The translations under genes and the position numbers were made by a program. Positions 14,458-26,120 of a stretch of DNA of 64,000 nt are shown piece after piece (within the stretch, counting starts at the first letter, position 1; every line of letters starts with the position of its first letter). The notes below the pieces were generated by a model. The model worked only from the letters and a program-made list of their open reading frames with translations, was not told the origin of the DNA and ran no database searches. Source of the stretch: Fistulifera solaris (Eukaryota); NCBI GenBank assembly GCA_030295235.1, contig AP026152.1, forward strand, positions 620,001-684,000, read 5' to 3'.

Positions 14458-15452
14458 TTAAAGCCCCGCCTCTTTCTTTAGCTTTTCAAACTCATCGTCC
14501 ACTGCCTTGTTGTCACTTTTTGCCGACGATGAACTCGATTCTTCCTTGGCAGGATTGAGCATGCCCTTCAATTTATTCAATTCATCATCGACACTAGACG
14601 CCGCCTCCAGCAGTTTGAATTGATCCTCCAACGACGACTTACTACCGGGAAGTGCCTTGGACATTTCCGACGAAATTTCAGCCGCGGCTTCCAACGCTTC
14701 GACTTTTTCTTCCATTCGTTTGAAAGCATCCATACTGGTCGAGCCCGTCAAACCCGTCAACATGTCGTTGACTTTCTGTGTCGACTGTGCCGTTCGCGCG
14801 CGTGCCACCATTTGTTCCTTCTTCGACTTCGCATCCAATATAGCACTCTCTAACGTTTGCATCCCTTCATATAGTTTATCGATACTGCTCGCCTGTGCAT
14901 CAATTTGTGACTGTAACGATGCCGCTTCGTCCAATTGTTGTTGTCGTCGCGTCAAGGCCTCCTTGGCCAATCCTTCGTTCGACGCCTTGAGGGCAAGTTG
15001 CGCTCGTTTGTACCAATCTTCCGCGACCGCGTCGCATTGTTCTTTTGTTTCAATAAACGACGTTGTGTGGCGGTGACTTCGGCGTACGATTGACGGACAC
15101 TGACCAAGTCTTTCTACAAAGGTGGGTTGAGGGTGGGTCGAACGTGTTGCGGATCGAACAATGAGACAGTTGCCTATGGACGTATAGGAAAGCCCTTGAT
15201 TCATTCGACTACACGTACCTGCATATCTTCTACAGCTTGCGTCATGATCTTTTCGGGATCTTCTAAATTTTTGAGAATATTGTTGAGGTTCGATTTGGCG
15301 ACACGAGTGAATCGATCAAACAAATTCATTTGCAAAGCTGTCGACGACGAAGGAACCGAGACACTTGGTCGAGATACGAAGCTACTGTGCGGAACCACAG
15401 TGAAAGCATTGGCGGTTGCCAACAAGAGCGTTGTCAATCCGAATCGCACCAT
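14458..15452 (-). CDS. VIPP1: Plastid VIPP1/IM30 (PspA family); intron 15114-15218, frameshift ~15045
   Basis: Signal peptide ending ANA-F, then MNLFDRFTRVAKSNLN..LEDPEKIMTQAVEDMQ|KDLVSVRQSYAEV, EDWYKRAQLAL and AFKRMEEKVEALEA. Confidence 0.92.
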
Positions 15453-16216
15453 TTTGAAAGAAGGGAGAACGGATGGGTATGGGTCGTGAAAGGTAAGTCG
15501 ATGGCGTGTAATAGAGAGCTATTTTATAAATCGTCAACAAGACTCTCTCCGGATGCTCTTCCGTGCGGCACAAGATAGAGTCAGATTCTATTGACGCGTG
15601 TTCGAAACAGACAAGAGTGTCAAGTCGTCCTTCCAATAATGGAAACGTTGCAATAACTACTCCGGAGTAACACACAATCGCGACAACGCGATGGCACGCG
15701 ATCGACGACGAGATTTTTTCAAGGCAAGGGGTGATGACGTGGAAGTCCGTGCCGCGTACGTCCGTAAAAAATTTTCGGACACTGCTTACTATCTCTGGAA
15801 GTGTAGTCTTGTGGATTTTCGCATTGAATAATCGAAACCGGACCGACAGTTGATTACAAAATGTATCGTACCGGCACCGCATTCTATCTGAGTGCTATCT
15901 CTACAGGAAGTTCAGTCGTGGTCTACGCAAATCAACATATTGATCCTATAGTGGGTATTGCAGCCTCCCTCATAAAGTACCGTCTACATTCCATCACTCC
16001 GAAAGATACTTTTGGCGTCGCATTATAGTTGCATTTGTTCCGGCGTTTCGATTTCTACGTGTTTTCACGTAGATCGAGTAAGCTTTTCCATTGACACCTC
16101 CCCGATCTTTTTTTCTCGTTCCTTTTGCATTATTGACAGGCTCTCATATTAGTTGCAGGAACTATTGTTCGCTCTGTTGCTTTCAACGACGAAGTCGCTC
16201 GCTCTGCCCTCTCAAC

Positions 16217-16750
16217 ATGATGTCCCCTTTTGCTCGATTTACGGCTACCAAAGTTGCATCCCGGTAAGTGCATGTGTAGAGAGATCTTCGTGAATCTGAT
16301 TTGCAAAGATGTGAATCATCGTTGTCGTTTGTCTTGCCCGTTCAAATTTATCCGGTGCATTCCTACACACATTCTTGTCATTGAAGTATTAGCTTGCTGC
16401 TACTTCATGATGCATGCTGTCATTATTTACTCATCATGCCTTTCCTCATATTTTTTTCTCCAGAGTCGTCGTCGCTACGCGCGCGCAAAGCACTTTGGTA
16501 GCCGTGCCCAAGAAAAACTTTTCAAAGGACTGGTTGAGTGACCCCTCGACGTATCCCTTGATTGCGATCATGTCGATTGCTGCCAGTGGGTGTGCGGGTT
16601 TCATGGCGTACAAGCTGACGTATTGTCCCGATGTTCGTATCACGAACAAGACCAAGGTAAGAGCGAAAACAATCAATGGTCTGTTACTTTTATATACACT
16701 TGTATTCACACTCGTTCTCTCCTCAGGGTAAAGTTCTTCGTGATTGGTAG
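16217..16750 (+). CDS. NDUFA4/B12D-family small mitochondrial membrane protein, copy 1; introns 16264-16463 and 16657-16726
   Basis: Spliced product MMSPFARFTATKVASR|VVVATRAQST..WLSDPSTYPLIAIMSIAASGCAGFMAYKLTYCPDVRITNKTK|GKVLRDW*. The YPL-TM-PDVR pattern is characteristic of the family. Confidence 0.85.
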
Positions 16751-17080
16751 GCATTGCCTGCAATTAACTACATCGTAAGGAAAAACTAGTCAATCAAGTT
16801 GAGTGCACTAATGTTTCTCTTTAATATGTCTATCAATGTGTGCTGTATCCACTAGTTTGGCTGTATTAGACTCCTTTCGTGTCGTGTGACTTGTTATTGA
16901 ACAAACAACTGGTTCTTTCAATGGGCTTGCATTTGGACTGTTAGATTAAGCCTCGAACAAAAGTGCATGAACTGAAACGTTTAGTAGACTTCTTGAATGC
17001 TCGACGCTTCCTTGGATGTTGAATGTCAACGGATGGAATAAGCGAAAGAATTTGTCATTGTTATACTTGTGTGCCTTCTT

Positions 17081-20000
17081 TTATACAGGTCCTCCTGTCT
17101 CGCTGAGAGCATTGCCTAGCACATCCAAATATTGTTTCAGGTCGTCGGCTCCGACACCAAGTGCTATTCGAACGGCATCATAAATTAAGAATTGGAGACT
17201 CACAAGGAGCATATAGAAAACGAGACGTAGAGGCAATCCCCGGAAAAAGCCCGCTGGACCATCCCGTTCCAATACCAGCTGACCGGCCGCCAATGGACTC
17301 ATATTCGACTTGGTCTTTTCATTTGACTGATCGTTACGTCGGCGGGGTTACTGACGATAGCTGCCACGATACCTCCCAAAATTCCACCCACTAAACTAAT
17401 TCCCAACGACAGGTTCAGCTCTTCTTTAGCAGCCGGAAAGACGTTGTACAAGTAGGTTGTGCTCAAGTCGAAAACGGTAAACTTGGCTGCAGCAAATGGG
17501 ATCTCTTTGGCCAACACAACTGGCACAGCAGAAAACAGAGAGAGAAATCCTTCTTCCGCCACCATTCTGTTGTAAACTGCCAAGATATTCGGAGCATAGT
17601 CTTTTTGAAAGACGGATCGGATCCTTACAGCCTCAAAGGGGCTGATGACGAAGGACCCAAGAAATGCTCCGACGGAAGCCGCGGTCAAAATGATTGGGAC
17701 TTCAAGCCCTGCACTCGCTGGACCCGCGAGCTCAAAAAGGAAACGTCTGGTATATTCGGTCAGTGAATATGATATGCCTCCCCATGTTAGAAAGCCCAAT
17801 AACGTCGGTACCCATCCAGTAAAAAAAGCCGGTCGGACCGGAGTCGGCAAGTACGCGCTTGAAGGCTTCGATAACATCCGGGTAGCTCTCCGGATCCGTT
17901 TGGACCTTGACATCCACATGAGAGCAAGAACAAAACATCTAAGCAAGGAGCTCGGGAAGTACATACCTTCGTTTTCACAACGTCAATCGGCGTTAAAGCG
18001 AGATGGACCCCTCCACAACAGATAGCTCCTGAAACAACAAACCGTAGGAATGATCCAGCTCCAAGCTGCATATCTCGCTCGATTGGTGATCTCCCTCGAG
18101 GACCAAAATCGGGTTCGAAGATGACTGACGTGTCTTTCACGAAACTTTTACCGGTGTCACTGTACTCGGGGTCAACAGCTAGAGTGTATCTGTTCAAGTC
18201 GGGTTCAAAAACTAAACCCACTCCACCAGGAAGAAGCTGAAGAATTTGTGTTGACGTTGATCTCGAGTTAGTTCCAAAGGATGGTAAGATATCTTCCAAG
18301 CTACTGTCAGCGGACCTGATGGTACGTGGCTTGTAGATTTCGGCGGCACTCGGATTCGGAATGGCCGAACCACTTTTCAAGATTTTTTGTTTAGCTTGAA
18401 CAAAGTCGTCCTCGGATTGAAAAGCACTAAAAACGTCTTTTTCTGCCACGGGATAGGCTAGGACTTGAACAGGATCATCGTAGCATCCTCTTCCAAAACA
18501 TCCACTGCTACCGCTACCTCGCCTAGCAGCGAAATTTATAATCGATTCCACGGAGTTGGGGTCACTTGGGTTTGGCATTTTCGCCCTCATCTCTTTGGTT
18601 GGTATTGATGTGGCAGGAAGCGGCTGATCTGGGGAGATCACTCGAGCCATGAGAGGATCGTTCATGTTGACACGCGCTGTAAGAGGCGGAGGTTCCACAT
18701 AAACCTCAATAGGTTTCTCGCACGCGTATCCTGTTCCGTTGTTTGTGATTAGAATATCAGAAACTTCATACTCCAACACAGCAGTAGCCGTAGCCGTCAC
18801 TCCCCCGTTTTGCACGGAAGTTTCGGGTGGCGCAATACAAATTCGAATGATTTCTTTTCAGTGTAACCAGAGCCAGGATTCAGTAGCTGAATTCGTTCGA
18901 TACGTCCTTTGTTGGGACCACCACGAAAAAGAAATGCTTTGGCTTCGGCTACTTCTCCTTGTTCTCCACTCTCAAACCGTAGACTAGCAGGTGGGGATAT
19001 TGTTACTTCAGGCGGCTTGGCATAGCCTGCACCCCTGTTGACGACGTCGATCCTCAAGATTTTCCCATTGGGCGATAGAATGGCTCGTCCAGTAGCCGTC
19101 TGGAAGGACTCTCCAGCGTCGGGTGGAGGAAACCGCACCTCGGGAGGACCATAACCAGGGGCGTAGCCGGACCCAGGATCCAAAATACGGACGGAGGAAA
19201 TACTGCCGTTGTCTATAGCTGCCAAAAGTTTGCTGATTTCATCGACTGGTTGGTTTTTCTCCATCAACGCAAACAAAAGCGCAATTTGTCGACGAGCCTC
19301 TTTGATTTCTCGTTCCATCCGCGCCTCCTCTTTTTCAGATAAAGGTGACAAGCCATCTTTCTCTCTGGATTTTCTCAGCGCGTCGGTCGACGGACAATAT
19401 CTTTCCAACAGAGATTGCAAAAGGCGACGAGGTCCGTCGTCTTTGCACGATATTCTTGCAAACCCACTTCGACACTCGCGGAGAATGCGCCAAACTGATT
19501 TAACCGAAATTTGTTGACCTCTTCTTCCGATGCTGTAATAGGAATTATTCTCGCTCGCTCGTACCACCACTTCTGACAGGCCTTGTCGAAGCAAAGAAGA
19601 AAACGACTCAAATATGTGACGAAACGGACATTGTAACCATCTTTTTCCACATCAAATACTGTCACTCCAGTTCTTTTGTTCACAGGGGTGGCTTCCCATT
19701 TTTCTAACGTTGCTGCATTCGCAGCGTCTGTCGCTCCGAGCACACTCGCTGCAGAAATTAGTGACGAGGCAAAGAATAGACGCCGTGATGCAGAGTCCTT
19801 GTTTTTAGGCTCGGGTTTGTTGGAAGAAAATTCCTGGTGGCTTTTAAAAGCATATCTGCAGCTTGAGTAAGCTGATTTGCTGAGAAGTCGTCCTTCTTAT
19901 CTTGCTGAATATCCTCGGTCAGTAACCTGGCTTTCATCGGTATCCATTTCGTCGCACAGCCCCCTCGCTTCATTCGGATCAGTATTCTTTCTTGAAACCT

Positions 20001-20105
20001 TCTTGTTTCGCTCATTGAAGAATGTATGATAGGATGAAGATGACTTTGAGCCGAAAGAAATGCCGTTGCTGATGAAAGAAGACAAAAAGTCATCAAGGAC
20101 AGCAT
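17081..20105 (-). CDS. Mitochondrial-carrier-family (phosphate-carrier-like) protein with long N-terminal extension, predicted plastid-targeted; intron 17906-17966; frameshifts ~19840, ~19445, ~18855, ~17822, ~17310
   Basis: Three carrier signatures: TPIDVVKTK|VQ, SPFEAVRIR and NPADVTISQM. PiC-like GAICCGGVHLAL and KEIPFAAAKF. N-terminus MLSLMTFCLLSSATA-FL. Confidence 0.82.
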
Positions 20106-20586
20106 GGCCAAGCGCACCCTATGAGTATCAGCAGGATTGACTTTACAGCCTGCCCTCAAATCCAGCCGCCGTCTCATGGTAGACTGTTACCCCTTTTCAA
20201 ACAATTGTTCACTGCTTGGAATGCCGACTTTCTCACAAACAAGTTCTTTTTGCGCTGCAGTCGTAGGTCTCTCGTCGAAGATCGGTGTTTATTGTGTTTT
20301 GCTTTCTTGCGTGTTGTGGCACTGTGCCGACGTAGCTGCAACGGTCACAAAACACGAGTCACACCTACAGTTTATTTGGGTATGGAATTGTTATTTAACG
20401 GTTGTTTACCGCTTTCGCTAATAAAATAACGCGATCGATTCGGTGTGACTACTTTATGCAGGATAGAAAATTACAGCCACGTGTCACGTCGTCACGCCAT
20501 TTTGGGCTAGAGTTTAGCTATGAAAGCAATTTAATCACCGTACTCCGTAGTCACCTGTATTTGATTCAAGACAAGTTCAAATCGAT

Positions 20587-22044
20587 TTAGCGCACTGTTA
20601 CGTCCTCCTCCGCGGGAATTCGCTCTATTTCAATCCGAGGCATCCTTATACCTGATTCCGACGACTCGACCACCTCTGTGACTTCAATGTCATCCTCTGT
20701 TTCTTCTGCTGCTTTTCCAGTGGTTGCGTCCAATTCTGGCCACCAAAGTGGTAAGTATGGCAAATATCTATATTCACGATCTCCAATCCTAATTTTGTTT
20801 GTATGTGACCATTGGCCACCCTCCAAAAGACCCACAGCTTCGAGGCGCATCAGGGCCAAGACAACATTCGTCCCCTTCACTGGAGGACTGATGATTTTAC
20901 CTATTGTTTTGTCAGTAGCCGTGTCCACCAATTTCGCCCCCGCTGTACAATCTTCTTCAATTTCTTTGACGCGCTGTCGCGATCTCTCCAACGCTACTTT
21001 CAGTTCCATGGCCGCTTTCTCGTCCACAGCGTCGGTCGACGGTTCAATCGATCCAGTGGCGATCGCCACGAGGTTTCCTGCCGTGAGAACGGAGAGGCGG
21101 GGAAGACGAGTGGGTAAATACTGCAATTCCTCGGGTGTAAATTTGCTCCGCTCTCGGCCTTCTTGTAAATTTGCCGCAACTCGCCATGGAGATGGAACAT
21201 CCGTATGAGGATCCAATAGCATGAGAGGCATGATTCGTTTGCGCAGAACGCCCGTATGATGCACTCGAGCCGTCAGTTCCTGACCCAGATAACAGCCCTT
21301 ATCAAAACTCACAGCGTTCAAATGTTCCTGATTGGATTCCAAGGCAACCAAACCCTTCAATTCGGAGCCTTCGGCGACACCTGCTAAACGACGAACCAGT
21401 TCGTAATTCCCGGGCATGGAAGGAAACGTACTCTTCGCAAGGGCATCGGAAAATTGTTGCACGGTGATATGGCGCGGACTCTGATCTCCTGGCAGCTGCA
21501 ACACTCGCATTCCCAAACTGGGATGGCGCGGGTCGAGTCCGGCCAAGAATCCGTCCGGTGTGCCTTGACTATTCAATGTTCCGTAAATGACGGCCGCGGC
21601 CATGTCTTCCGTCCGATCGGTAATTTCTACCTTAGTTCGTCGCATTTTGAACAGTTTCATATGCTCCAGTAGTTCATGAACAGTGTCATTGCTGACTTCG
21701 ACGTAATATTGTTCTTCATTCAACTTCCACAGTAACGAATCCGTGACAATCCGACCTTTATTATCGAGAAAGCAAGTGGCGCGGAGTTGATCGGTGAATT
21801 GCACATCGGGATCTGTTTCGGGCTGCATATGACGCGGAATACCCGGACGGATTGTACCCTTCTTCTCGGGCCGAGGAGGATTGGGTGCGCTTCGCAAATC
21901 GGAAGTCACCAAGTTCTGCAAGAACGATGTAGCGCCAGTGCCCGCGACCGACAAAATGCGACGGTAATGAGGCTCCAAAATTTCGTGTCCTCGTCCCCAG
22001 AGGCGACCAAAATTGCCAGTAACTGTTGTAATGGAAGGAGGCAT
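20587..22044 (-). CDS. IBA57: IBA57/CAF17/YgfZ Fe-S cluster maturation factor
   Basis: Intact 485-aa ORF with FLQNLVTSD, FLDNKGRIV and the family signature SFDKGCYLGQELTAR. Confidence 0.93.
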   Translation of the reverse strand: MPPSITTVTGNFGRLWGRGHEILEPHYRRILSVAGTGATSFLQNLVTSDLRSAPNPPRPEKKGTIRPGIPRHMQPETDPDVQFTDQLRATCFLDNKGRIVTDSLLWKLNEEQYYVEVSNDTVHELLEHMKLFKMRRTKVEITDRTEDMAAAVIYGTLNSQGTPDGFLAGLDPRHPSLGMRVLQLPGDQSPRHITVQQFSDALAKSTFPSMPGNYELVRRLAGVAEGSELKGLVALESNQEHLNAVSFDKGCYLGQELTARVHHTGVLRKRIMPLMLLDPHTDVPSPWRVAANLQEGRERSKFTPEELQYLPTRLPRLSVLTAGNLVAIATGSIEPSTDAVDEKAAMELKVALERSRQRVKEIEEDCTAGAKLVDTATDKTIGKIISPPVKGTNVVLALMRLEAVGLLEGGQWSHTNKIRIGDREYRYLPYLPLWWPELDATTGKAAEETEDDIEVTEVVESSESGIRMPRIEIERIPAEEDVTVR

Positions 22045-22504
22045 CCTTTATTTAAGTTTAAAGCTGTAATATCGCACGGATACCTGAGACTATGAATGAT
22101 AAAAGGATGAATGAGATGTTATTGTTGTGATCGAGAGGAACGATCAAGAACAAGAACACTATATACTGTACAAAAGGGCGGAGGTTCGTCGTGCGCCCGT
22201 CCGTTGCTCGTTTGCGGGCTCGTCGGTCGTCACTGTCGCACTACGAATGACCAATCAAGGTGAAAGTTCCGTTGTAGCGCGTGACGTCAGTAAAACTACA
22301 CATCCACCTACAGTCGGGAAAACTTCGTTCCGTGGCCGCTGTAAACGTCATCATTTTTCGCCTTTTCACTTTGGTTGGTGACCACGTTGACCCGCAAAAG
22401 ACTTGCCACCGTCGGCATTCGGCATCTGCTCTTGCCTTTCGTCGAACAATTGCTGCTTATTGTTATTTTCCAGACGATACCATTTAAAGACATTTAATAG
22501 CATC

Positions 22505-22949
22505 ATGAACGCCTTGACTCGTGCCGCAACCACCACTCTTCCTCGGTACGTTCGATATATCTTGCAGTAGGGATTTGTCGGAATTTTGCGTTCTTCGCTT
22601 TTATTTATTTATCACGAACGATCGCTTGCATTCTCGTGTATTCGTTGATGGCTCGAGAGAACAAGTAACTCATCACACTAAGAACTCCTCTATACTCCTT
22701 CACTCACTTATTGCAATATCCTTCTTTTAATGACACAGAGCCCGCAGTGCCGTGCGCATGCAGAGCACCATGCCCCAAGCCGAGTCGTTCCAAAAGACCT
22801 GGTTGAGTGATCCTTCGACGTACCCCATCATGGTGATTCTCGGTGGAGCTGTTACGGGATGCACGGCCTTTGCCACCAACAAGTTTGCGACCGATGGTAA
22901 TGTGCGTGTCTCCAGCAAGGCCAAGGGCAAGGTCATTCGCACCTGGTGA
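22505..22949 (+). CDS. NDUFA4/B12D-family protein, copy 2; intron 22546-22738
   Basis: Spliced product MNALTRAATTTLPR|ARSAVRMQST..WLSDPSTYPIMVILGGAVTGCTAFATNKFATDGNVRVSSKAKGKVIRTW*. Clearly homologous to the gene at 16217-16750. Confidence 0.85.
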
Positions 22950-24005: not shown

Positions 24006-24224
24006 CGATCATCGTCGATTGATCGTTGACCCCCCTCTGTCTCCATCGCTCATGACTCATGACTGAAATCCAGTCCTGACATTTTTTTTGCTTGTGCATA
24101 AAATGGCGACCATGATGAAAAGACAAAAAGGCGAGTGAGTGTTTACAAGAAGGAAGGTATAGCGTCAAAAGAAAAAAGACCGAAGCATCATTTAACTGCA
24201 TTCTTACCAAAATTATTTCGAAGA

Positions 24225-26120
24225 ATGCTTGACGTGACACTGATTCGACAGCAATTACTGGAGTTCGCCGGAGTGAGTCCTTCCTCGCATTGGCTGGAAG
24301 ATTGTCGTGCGGCTTTGCAAGTCAGCGGCCAAGAACAAATTACCGACTCGTATTTGCATCAAATTCTTTATCATGATCTCCGAGATGTTGTACGAGAATT
24401 AGATGAACAAGAGAACTACGGTCCTTTGTCGGAAGTCGCCATCGCTTTGCGACAAGCGCAAGCTCAGTCGATGCAAGCGTCACATCAATACAAAGCTTTA
24501 CTTCCTTCTTCTTTCCGTCTTTTAGTACAACTAGAAGAAATCTTGGATGTCAGTGTCAATGCACAAGCGCGTTACGAAAACGGACCCGCATCGAATGCGT
24601 CTCCCACGCCCGTCGGCAATCAACAAAAACGATGTCTTAAAATGGTATACTCGGACGGGTACGATTCGAACGAAATACTGGTGGCCACCGAAACATCACC
24701 GATTCCTTCCCTTTCGGTGCAGTCGAGGGCGGGCTGTAAAGTCATTTTAATGGGACCTATTCAATTGCGGCATGGTATGGCTCTGTGGAATAGTACTACG
24801 ACCTTGGTTCTCGGTGGAGAAGTGGAAGCGCTAGTCCAAATACAAAAGGCTGCTATTGAACAAGCCAAGCGGGTGGCGGGAGTAGGAATTGACCCAACCA
24901 TCAAAGCTCTTATATGGAATAATCAACAGCCTATTGGTGAAGATGGAGAACCACAAGGTACGATAGAATTAACTTTTTGTTGTGAAAGGGTAGATCATCG
25001 ATACGCTCGCTTACAACTTTATCCGTCCCACACTACAGATGAAGCCGAGTTCGAAAGTCGGGATCTGCCTCCTTCTGTACCTCCTACTTTGAATACAGGT
25101 ACCGGAAACGGATCGTCAAGTATGCAAACTATGAATGGAGCCCAACATAGCAATTTATCTCGTCCTGGTTTAGAGACTCTGCCTACATCGCGCGCGTCTT
25201 CCCGTTCGACGAGCCCAGTTCCTTTACCATCCGCACAAATAGGTCGCCCTCTTTCTCATGCTCCACCACAGCAACCTGCATCAAATAATAGTACTGGTCT
25301 TCAAAACTTTACCACCCAGTCAAATCGGTCCACTGGGTCAACACAATCGAGAAATCCCTACGCCAGCAATCACAACAATCGACACGGACATGCTCTTAAA
25401 AGCACCAACACGTCGCCTGTCCCCTCGTCCAACTCCAACAACTACGTGGATCTCGTGGATTTGACCGATTCGGTGGAATCGTCACATGGTACGAATGACC
25501 TTTCTGAGGTTAATACCAATGGTGCTGTGAATACCCCTTTACAAATGACGACCAATGTCACAAGTGAAAGCATACCTTACAATCAACTGCTGGAAATCAT
25601 TCAATTGGCGATCCGCGATCCAGAGGCGTATCGACGAGCGTTTGGAATGACATGGAACGTGGAATTGCAGCAAGTTGGCACCAAGGATTATTTCAACATC
25701 GAAAAACGAAAGAATCGTGCAAAGGGAGATGAGAAGAAGGTACGTGAGCCGCGAGTGCTTGTGAGTCTCTTGGCGTGTCCCTCAACGTTGTGTGGTCAGC
25801 ACGAATACGTGGTTACCGCAAAGTTCAAATGCCCCGGGGACGGTATACCCATTTCTTTCAAGATTGACTCTGCAACAATTGTAGAGCCGTACTTTCAATT
25901 GTCCCCATCGGATATGCGTCAACTCCGAAAAGATGATAAAGAACGAGCCAACACATTGGTCCGAGATGGAGGCAAATTATTGCAAGCCGACATGTATCAA
26001 TTGCGGTTGTATCAAGTGTCATTACTGCTATCACCGGAAGAATTCTTTCAGGATCGAACGGCTCCAGCAACACTCGATGGGCCAACGCCACTATTGCTGT
26101 TGGCCAAGAAGAAAAATTGA
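24225..26120 (+). CDS. RMI1: RMI1-like OB-fold protein; probable in-frame introns 24958-25038 and 25740-25799
   Basis: HWLEDC, QILYHDLR, LLVQLEEILDVS, KRCLKMVYSDG and ATETSPIPSL..GCKVILMGPIQLRHGMALWN..LGGEVEAL match the RMI1 N-terminal OB pattern. Confidence 0.8.
   Translation: MLDVTLIRQQLLEFAGVSPSSHWLEDCRAALQVSGQEQITDSYLHQILYHDLRDVVRELDEQENYGPLSEVAIALRQAQAQSMQASHQYKALLPSSFRLLVQLEEILDVSVNAQARYENGPASNASPTPVGNQQKRCLKMVYSDGYDSNEILVATETSPIPSLSVQSRAGCKVILMGPIQLRHGMALWNSTTTLVLGGEVEALVQIQKAAIEQAKRVAGVGIDPTIKALIWNNQQPIGEDGEPQGTIELTFCCERVDHRYARLQLYPSHTTDEAEFESRDLPPSVPPTLNTGTGNGSSSMQTMNGAQHSNLSRPGLETLPTSRASSRSTSPVPLPSAQIGRPLSHAPPQQPASNNSTGLQNFTTQSNRSTGSTQSRNPYASNHNNRHGHALKSTNTSPVPSSNSNNYVDLVDLTDSVESSHGTNDLSEVNTNGAVNTPLQMTTNVTSESIPYNQLLEIIQLAIRDPEAYRRAFGMTWNVELQQVGTKDYFNIEKRKNRAKGDEKKVREPRVLVSLLACPSTLCGQHEYVVTAKFKCPGDGIPISFKIDSATIVEPYFQLSPSDMRQLRKDDKERANTLVRDGGKLLQADMYQLRLYQVSLLLSPEEFFQDRTAPATLDGPTPLLLLAKKKN

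Follow-up and report, generated by a model that had tools for sequence, protein, structure and literature searches.

A gene on the minus strand of a 64,000-nucleotide stretch of the diatom Fistulifera solaris (contig AP026152.1, positions 620,001 to 684,000; hereafter the window) encodes a single fused protein in which a signal peptide, a transit peptide and a twin-arginine signal are followed by an all-helical domain (domain A), a beta-repeat module (domain B), a Cys pair and an SLC25 carrier. We favour, at somewhat better than even confidence, the view that this is a phosphate-carrier-derived protein of the thylakoid of algae with complex red plastids, which would bear a lumenal regulatory domain and move a small organic solute, probably together with H+. 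Its Phaeodactylum tricornutum orthologue is Phatr3_J11866 (hereafter J11866), a protein of 1057 residues that equals P0087 apart from a few residues and has the Attheya homologue P0113 as its reciprocal best match. The gene is catalogued and has appeared in a screen, and we found no description of its architecture, probable thylakoid address or family. The literature searched, which left most subscription journals outside its scope, held nothing on the twin-arginine signal, the N-terminal domains, the localisation or the family, and the passages considered of three proteomics papers (PMC11181951, PMC6683858, bioRxiv 2023.10.26.564148) held nothing on the protein.

A single gene with a tripartite presequence

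Five single-base indels, each at a short homopolymer run, break the reading frame in the assembly (17315, 17821, 18854, near 19440 and near 19845), and the sequence-only reading of the window had made its fusion of presequence, repeats and carrier depend on bridging them. The breaks are assembly errors, because public contigs of four runs supply or remove the base and an intact protein tiles the locus. This protein, F. solaris FisN_14Lh315 (P0001; 931 residues, a single open reading frame (ORF)), was the best match of a search with the repeat region and covers the locus in order with six tblastn high-scoring segment pairs of 81–99% identity, while a seventh, short pair of 70% identity marks the exon start after the intron. 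The corrected base is present at 17315, 17821 and 18854 in all listed runs covering them, and the break near 19845 is corrected in contigs of all four public runs; that near 19440 is spanned by a public contig with one gap and otherwise identical sequence, and is not among the 12 indel rows listed (12 of 34). With the intron and the five indels allowed for, the in-frame ATG codons at 20105 and 20177 give 988 and 1012 residues, respectively, and about 680–710 residues lie ahead of the carrier domain, close to the roughly 700 first estimated.

The locus thus holds a single gene for a single fused protein. A pair of neighbouring genes or an assembly chimera could be argued from the five frame breaks, from the lack of a spliced joint across the intron in public contigs and from the lack of any single contig over the whole stretch; this reading is refuted at the level of the gene model by the uninterrupted single ORF that numerous diatoms and also other algae have and by the correction of the indels in public contigs, and is scarcely credible. 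The repeat-region search found 230 proteins among 7797 candidates, and 65 of the 120 homologues listed (120 of the 230) are full length with the carrier, including the transcript-derived models P0011 and P0049, which are marked complete. The P0001 model starts at an internal Met (19937) and leaves out the in-frame signal peptide found upstream in the window, and would therefore be missed by plastid predictors. The window locus is perhaps a second homoeologue beside P0001; the atlas of Liu (2022; PMC9546453), which like the other papers cited here is represented by extracts, lists two Fistulifera copies of the gene.

The tripartite presequence, with its plastid and twin-arginine parts, is conserved far beyond chance. 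In the window the signal peptide ends at an ATA-F junction (20061/20060) and the twin-arginine segment closes with an ANA cleavage-like site, and both, like the four repeats described below, lie on the minus strand where the sequence-only reading had placed them. A presequence of signal peptide, transit peptide and twin-arginine (RR) segment takes diatom proteins to the thylakoid lumen. Judged by eye and not by a predictor, a signal peptide with Phe right after it (the ASAFAP type) can be seen in the window and in most of 50 full-length orthologues listed. Signals of the twin-arginine translocation (Tat) type were counted in 174 relatives, obtained from 422 stored proteins by way of 315 with the domain A motif and 203 after dereplication, each of the 174 having at least 85 upstream residues. 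RR with a 13-residue uncharged hydrophobic window, 44–98 residues before the domain A motif, occurs in 158 of them, against a mean of 2.6 and a maximum of 7 in shuffles of the same segments; the next 85 residues upstream show the pattern in 12 of 68. An A-x-A site follows the signal in 109 of the 158 (shuffled mean 64, maximum 76), and the segment after the RR is the sole hydrophobic peak ahead of the carrier. The flanks of the motif in the family, S/T/N/D before the RR and F/A/L at +2, agree with the Tat consensus S-R-R-x-F-L-K (PMC7317946) and were counted as support for a twin-arginine signal. Read from these signals, a thylakoid location of the protein is likely.

A carrier of the plastid envelope, shuttling malate or another reductant towards mitochondria and keeping the RR segment as a relic or an anchor, would give the protein a different address. 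A genome-wide CRISPR preprint, in discussing its high-light-depleted set, names J11866 with other transporter genes as malate-shuttle candidates (bioRxiv 2025.09.15.676419), and the diatom SLC25 protein MCFc has been reported at the plastid envelope (PMC12645085). We consider this reading improbable: the RR, hydrophobic core and A-x-A site are conserved across distant algae, unlike a relic, the substrate site is without Arg at contact point III, and J11866 shows a mean correlation of −0.14 with mitochondrial genes (PMC9546453).

Substrate site of the carrier domain

The carrier domain is a true SLC25 member for which transport activity is predicted, and a phosphate carrier by apparent descent only. 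Its AlphaFold model has the six-helix, three-fold architecture of the family and matches UCP1 and ADP/ATP carriers (Foldseek TM up to 0.76, E 7e-10). Substrate-site residues were tabulated for the 106 carriers of the family whose sequences were sufficiently complete for alignment (domain B is present in 57 and absent from 49), in a Pic2 numbering mapped by motif spacing through the Galdieria phosphate carrier P0384 and not from the Pic2 sequence itself; P0384 keeps all phosphate contacts, and the spacings fit. Similarly to P0384, the positions of the Px[DE]xx[KR] matrix and [DE]xx[KR] cytoplasmic gates are near invariant in the 106 members and the third matrix motif is degenerate. If the protein does sit in the thylakoid, it is very probably a working carrier.

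The phosphate label fails because the residues that contact phosphate have given way to others throughout the family. In Pic2, Q86A, K90A, Q176A and M275A each abolished arsenate uptake, and Asp124 touches Gln176 in the Pic2 model (PMC7924939). Not one of the 106 members keeps Gln86, Lys90, Asp124 or Met275, and Gln176 is kept in 49 (2 of 57 repeat-bearing and 47 of 49 repeat-less); P0001 has Trp, Ser, Glu and Phe at the positions of Gln86, Lys90, Gln176 and Met275. In P0001 His33, Thr44, Gln47, Lys183, Gly268 and Arg272 are present together with Cys29; Thr44, Gln47, Lys183, Gly268 and Arg272 are near invariant in the family, His33 is kept in 87 and Cys29 in 66 of the 106. The phosphate-carrier likeness recognised from sequence thus holds for descent and does not extend to the contacts, and we regard a substrate other than phosphate as quite likely.

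A thylakoid phosphate/H+ carrier with a remodelled site, moving phosphate from lumen to stroma and filling the role of PHT4;1 in lineages without it, would account for the descent (33% identity to P0384, E 3e-58; AT2G17270 as the best Arabidopsis match of J11866, PMC9546453) and for the retained His33, Thr44, Gln47, Gly268, Lys183 and Arg272, and PHT4 homologues are reported in green as well as red algae but in none of the other groups (PMC5948301). It is nevertheless unlikely, as the four phosphate contacts, at which single changes sufficed to abolish arsenate uptake in Pic2, are all absent from 55 of the 57 repeat-bearing members. A further reading takes the protein for a thylakoid carrier of Cu, Zn or Mn in which a PIC2-type copper site was retained and phosphate transport lost. 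The proposed Cu site consists of Cys29 and His33; P0001 has both, and of the 49 repeat-less members 46 have the Cys and 48 the His. Cys stands at position 28 in 56 of the 57 repeat-bearing ones, the Pic2 variants K90A and M275A lose phosphate yet retain Ag+/Cu transport (PMC7924939), and the co-regulated list of J11866 includes ZupT and two MgtE genes (PMC9546453). Such a carrier is rather less probable: repeat-bearing members keep Cys29 in only 20 and His33 in only 39 of 57, the invariant Lys183 and Arg272 remain in the cavity, and diatoms use cytochrome c6 and not plastocyanin (PMC5948301), so that lumenal demand for Cu should be low.

What replaces the phosphate contacts would fit a small organic solute. 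H+-symport carriers have an acid in the substrate site (PMC7611774), and Glu or Asp occupies position 176 in 50 of the 57 repeat-bearing members. As Asp124 and Gln176 touch in the Pic2 model, the pocket may have retained an acid able to bind a proton through the change to Ser124/Glu176. Contact point II of this clade reads Lys (39) or Arg (16), then Glu (48) or Asp (2), while the repeat-less clade has Arg-Gln; neither corresponds to the G[IVLM] of nucleotide carriers. R[DE] at this point is a mark of SLC25 amino-acid carriers, and glutamate carriers are likewise without Arg at contact point III (PMC6769469). By this comparison the Lys-Glu pair leans towards an amino acid and Arg-Gln towards a carboxylate, and any single named substrate would be a doubtful choice.

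Soluble domains and family distribution

AlphaFold models of P0001 (mean predicted local distance difference test score (pLDDT) 75) and of the N-terminal part P0016 (mean pLDDT 74) place domain A at about residues 95–243 of P0001, domain B at 244–420 and the carrier at 627–906, followed by a short tail helix; the linkers, which include a CxGRxCYD motif, are regions of low confidence. The sequence-only reading had overlooked domain A, the intron, a short domain D just ahead of transmembrane helix 1 and the C-terminal tail. Domain A is common to every family member. It gave no Pfam match below E 0.04, no PDB sequence match below E 0.07 and no usable match in the Atlas search, and a search among shorter proteins returned 44 matches, none of them with a non-algal name and many of them probably truncated parts of genes. 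Weak scans with one short pattern each gave 13 prokaryote and 23 viral contig matches, and none was confirmed. The 605-residue N-terminal model has no PDB structure match at E 0.001, a search that took its domains together and does not imply a new fold; its best structural hits (Z 6.2 and 5.6) are generic helical bundles.

Domain B carries the GxGY repeats, of which 69 orthologues have four in 48 cases, three in 12, five in 6 and two in 3; two or more arose in none of 5000 shuffles. The likeness to structural proteins of T4-like cyanophages, first proposed in the sequence-only reading, is borne out by sequence and predicted fold. The domain matches PHROG 701, 19630 and 2885 at E 1e-8 to 1e-13 (P0207 down to E 1e-16), has 34 matches at E ≤0.001 among the predicted viral structures of BFVD (best E 2.5e-9) and matches Atlas viral clusters at 0.95. 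Of 66 phage records matched by the repeat, 65 are cyanophages; the proteins are structural, the best at about 40% identity over 78 residues, and at so low an identity no phage donor can be named. Against chains of T4-type tail sheaths the domain reaches only Z 4.2–4.8. Any viral origin, conceivable from this resemblance, could apply only to the repeat module. Set beside the virion GxGY repeats (PHROG 701, 19630, 2885 and 460), which domain B resembles in sequence and predicted fold, the diatom protein differs in having four copies inside a eukaryotic membrane carrier. The large repeat domain of the sequence-only reading is real as to its four repeats, and smaller than supposed: the mature N-terminal part has some 550 residues, of which the repeats make up about 175, and a 49-member sister set is without them. 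In a different protein, P0218 (3120 residues, without domain A), about 20 stretches match the repeat profile, and it may serve as a reference for the repeat fold.

The common core of the family is domain A, domain D and the C-terminal tail, with the repeats as an option. The tail motif is found in 54 of 57 repeat-bearing and 39 of 49 repeat-less members and in none of five aligned sequences without domain A. The CxGRxCYD motif occurs in 68 of 69 close orthologues, 27 of the 57 repeat-bearing members and none of the 49 others. Among the 69 diatom orthologues the mean column identity is 0.75 for domain A, 0.71 for domain B and 0.72 for the carrier, so that the soluble domains are as conserved as the carrier itself. 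This conservation, the likeness of domain B to phage structural repeats and the large insertions in the carrier of some paralogues would suit a strut or scaffold, in which the carrier is an anchor and an A–B rod sets the distance between thylakoid membranes or holds a partner in the lumen. That reading is very unlikely, as the gates and several cavity residues are near invariant without being needed by an anchor, and a whole clade is without domain B.

A profile search of 1.84 billion representatives, of which the best 150 of 9366 matches were listed, and a further search with a brown-algal member outlined two layouts. Domains A and B with the carrier are found in diatoms (several paralogues), Chattonella and Chrysoparadoxa; domain A and the carrier without domain B are found in brown algae, pelagophytes, a Thalassiosira, dinoflagellates, Chromera, Vitrella and the haptophyte Chrysotila. 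Among the 150 matches listed, most of which carry no taxon, none with domain A bears the name of a red alga, a green alga or a cryptophyte. As for homologues lacking both the RR motif and the repeats, which the sequence-only reading took to count against it, the RR signal is present in 158 of the 174 relatives and the repeats are absent from the sister clade.

A first tree of 95 of 111 rows, made by a quick method, left the deep split undecided. In a second, built from the carrier domain alone with 38 hand-picked rows (36 of the 111 and two further PiC-like ones) and with a bootstrap not quite settled, each layout has a branch of its own (99/97 and 100/99), and both together stand apart from five PiC-like rows (100/99), no other carrier subfamily being in the tree. 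The repeats would have been gained later or lost once, a choice that the root of the tree leaves undecided. The dinoflagellate members P0379 and P0382 have an EF-hand pair between domains A and D, where diatoms have domain B; they are possibly Ca2+-regulated thylakoid carriers, and their layout fits a regulatory position of domain B. A long-branch clade of paralogues of about 1000 residues (P0240, P0245, P0247, P0251, P0253, P0260, P0262 and P0264) has big insertions within the carrier, and Arg replaces His33 in those inspected.

Proposed role and genomic setting

In the mechanism that we propose, the Tat system would, after plastid import, move the folded domains A, B and D into the lumen, and the six helices would then enter the thylakoid membrane. 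The N-terminal domain of the aspartate/glutamate carrier (AGC) lies on the cytosolic side (PMC6769469); with the carrier termini on the side of the cytoplasmic state and domains A, B and D in the lumen, that side would therefore face the acidic lumen, and the cavity would be turned towards the proton gradient just as it is in mitochondria. The acid moved from position 124 to the neighbouring 176 in the repeat-bearing clade would couple one H+ to a monovalent solute, either a carboxylate or an amino acid, and in the light solute and H+ would be exported from lumen to stroma; amino acids freed by lumenal proteolysis in photosystem II repair are an example of a possible cargo. Domain A and the tail likely form a regulatory lid, because they are common to both clades and would lie on the same side; this lumenal lid would regulate the carrier as in the ATP-Mg/Pi carrier (APC) and AGC, with the beta module and the Cys pair as add-ons. 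In favour of the proposal as a whole, J11866 has a HECTAR chloroplast call (PMC9546453), shows co-expression with photosynthesis genes (bioRxiv 2024.12.16.628690) and figures in the high-light discussion of the CRISPR screen (bioRxiv 2025.09.15.676419).

Several observations weigh against this proposal. Sixteen of the 174 relatives miss the Tat-type signal, several of them having RK or KR, or RR further upstream, and of 39 repeat-less full carriers no more than 27 have the signal. In the extracts of a Tat review, polytopic substrates have their helices before the signal, and none is given with six helices after the passenger (PMC7317946). Published predictors disagree on J11866: the atlas calls it a plastid carrier and not localised, with chloroplast from HECTAR and 'Other' from ASAFind (PMC9546453); in a census that takes it for a plastid 'phosphate transporter', and writes the gene as J11886, plastid-fraction enrichment was seen for most carriers (bioRxiv 2024.12.16.628690). 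An acid at 124 or 176 is present in only 1 of 49 repeat-less members, and H+ coupling would therefore not be family-wide. Of the 57 repeat-bearing members, 18 have another residue in place of His33; contact point II is mostly Lys-Glu and not the Arg-Glu of amino-acid carriers, and the Arg usual in those carriers at contact point III is found in 1 of the 57, with Phe in 48. Finally, repair proteases are missing from the list of genes co-regulated with J11866, which names tRNA ligases, lipid enzymes and Zn/Mg transporters (PMC9546453).

A more specific version would make the family the missing thylakoid carrier of ascorbate, or of ascorbate and dehydroascorbate, in algae with complex red plastids, feeding the lumenal de-epoxidase of photoprotection. 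By a route not known to have been described, Tat would here export a 60-kDa lumenal domain ahead of the six helices, and a redox- or pH-sensing lumenal domain, into which a phage virion repeat was taken up, would gate the carrier. The loss of one positive contact, the more aromatic site, the occurrence of the family in lineages that have lumenal de-epoxidases and the phenotype in high light fit this version, as does PHT4;4 as a precedent, and a review treats further ascorbate transporters as an open question (PMC9916717). No result of our analysis points specifically to ascorbate, and we see it as a long shot.

Among thylakoid solute carriers, PHT4;1, the Arabidopsis phosphate transporter, belongs to another transporter family, and TAAC is said, going by a paper's title, to be restricted to green plants. 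TAAC is the Arabidopsis thylakoid ATP/ADP carrier of the SLC25 family, needed in photosystem II repair (PMC5948301); its type has G[IVLM] at contact point II, in contrast to Lys-Glu in the diatom protein. The nearest carriers by sequence are PiC (SLC25A3), MIR1 and PIC2, with which the family shares the degenerate third matrix motif, His33, Thr44, Gln47 and Gly268; it differs from them in lacking Gln86, Lys90, Asp124 and Met275 and in having 300–700 extra N-terminal residues with plastid and Tat-type signals. APC and AGC have the same layout of N-terminal soluble domain, carrier and short conserved terminal helix (PMC7611774), but theirs is an EF-hand domain that senses cytosolic Ca2+, whereas the diatom protein has a helical domain and a phage-like beta module predicted to be lumenal; EF-hands within the family occur only in some dinoflagellate members. 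MCFc (Phatr3_J46742) is likewise a plastid-located diatom SLC25 protein with a photosynthetic phenotype, but a 40-kDa envelope protein of another subfamily without a large N-terminal domain (PMC12645085). Identity with that subfamily of about 40 kDa (J46742, J42874 and J46612) is ruled out, the orthologue being J11866 with its 1057 residues. In the printed extracts J11866 itself figures only as a plastid-predicted 'phosphate transporter' or malate-shuttle candidate, and they mention no Tat signal, domains A, B or D, lost contacts or family.

Table 1 Features of the J11866 orthologue, in window positions
Feature	Position	Strand	Evidence
Whole gene, Phatr3_J11866 orthologue	17081..20177	-	tblastn of intact P0001, public contigs, paper supplement
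Signal peptide, endoplasmic-reticulum type, ends ATA, then Phe (diatom bipartite plastid signal)	20058..20105	-	sequence
Transit-peptide-like stretch, poorly conserved, holds indel near 19845	19789..20057	-	mean column identity 0.29 over the part that P0001 covers
Tat-type signal: S-R-R-x-F-F, uncharged hydrophobic core, A-x-A site	19714..19788	-	sequence and family counts
Domain A, all-helical, holds indel near 19440	19208..19686	-	AlphaFold pLDDT ~80-93; column identity 0.75
Domain B, beta-rich, four GxGY repeats, holds indel at 18854	18678..19207	-	pLDDT mostly >90
GxGY repeats 1-4	19192-19130, 19051-18998, from 18892 (across frame break), 18755-18696	-	sequence
CxGRxCYD motif, possible lumenal disulfide or metal site	18477..18503	-	motif counts
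Domain D: short helix, beta-hairpin, Gly/Pro linker just ahead of transmembrane helix 1	18063..18260	-	column identity 0.68
SLC25 carrier, three repeats, holds indels 17821 and 17315	17159..18059	-	PF00153 x3, E 1.4e-38 (P0001)
Intron, 61 nt, GT..AG, inside carrier repeat 1	17906..17966	-	tblastn and sequence
C-terminal tail, predicted short helix, then stop codon	17081..17158	-	column identity 0.83, highest of any part

The locus sits in ordinary diatom nuclear DNA between an IBA57/YgfZ-like folate-binding gene directly upstream (20587-22047, minus strand) and, about 1.5 kb downstream, a PspA/IM30 (VIPP1-like) gene whose presequence is of the bipartite plastid kind (14458-15518, minus strand), the latter probably a chance neighbour. 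Two small divergent ORFs that share a motif, at 16411-16763 (minus) and 22734-22949 (plus), flank it, and we take them to resemble NDUFA4/B12D-type paralogues. The other long ORFs of the window are ordinary eukaryotic genes (MutS, radical SAM, RMI1 at 24102-26120 on the plus strand, RING, MIF4G/MA3, ARM, actin-related, subtilase, RNB, Brix, AAA, SET and DUF6816), and overlaps between several of them in shifted frames suggest that there are further indel errors.

Diatoms and their kin are reported, in the extracts available, to be without the plant thylakoid phosphate and ATP carriers, and the passage of solutes across their thylakoids is little understood. A conserved carrier family of several paralogues with a lumen-targeting signal is a direct candidate for such passage, in a model diatom where the gene already has a high-light screen record. 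The CRISPR hit J11866 should accordingly be reread as a possible thylakoid carrier rather than an envelope shuttle, and not as a phosphate carrier. If the proposed topology is true, the protein would be an unusual Tat substrate, with a soluble passenger first and six helices after it, and a phage-type structural repeat would have been placed inside a eukaryotic transporter.

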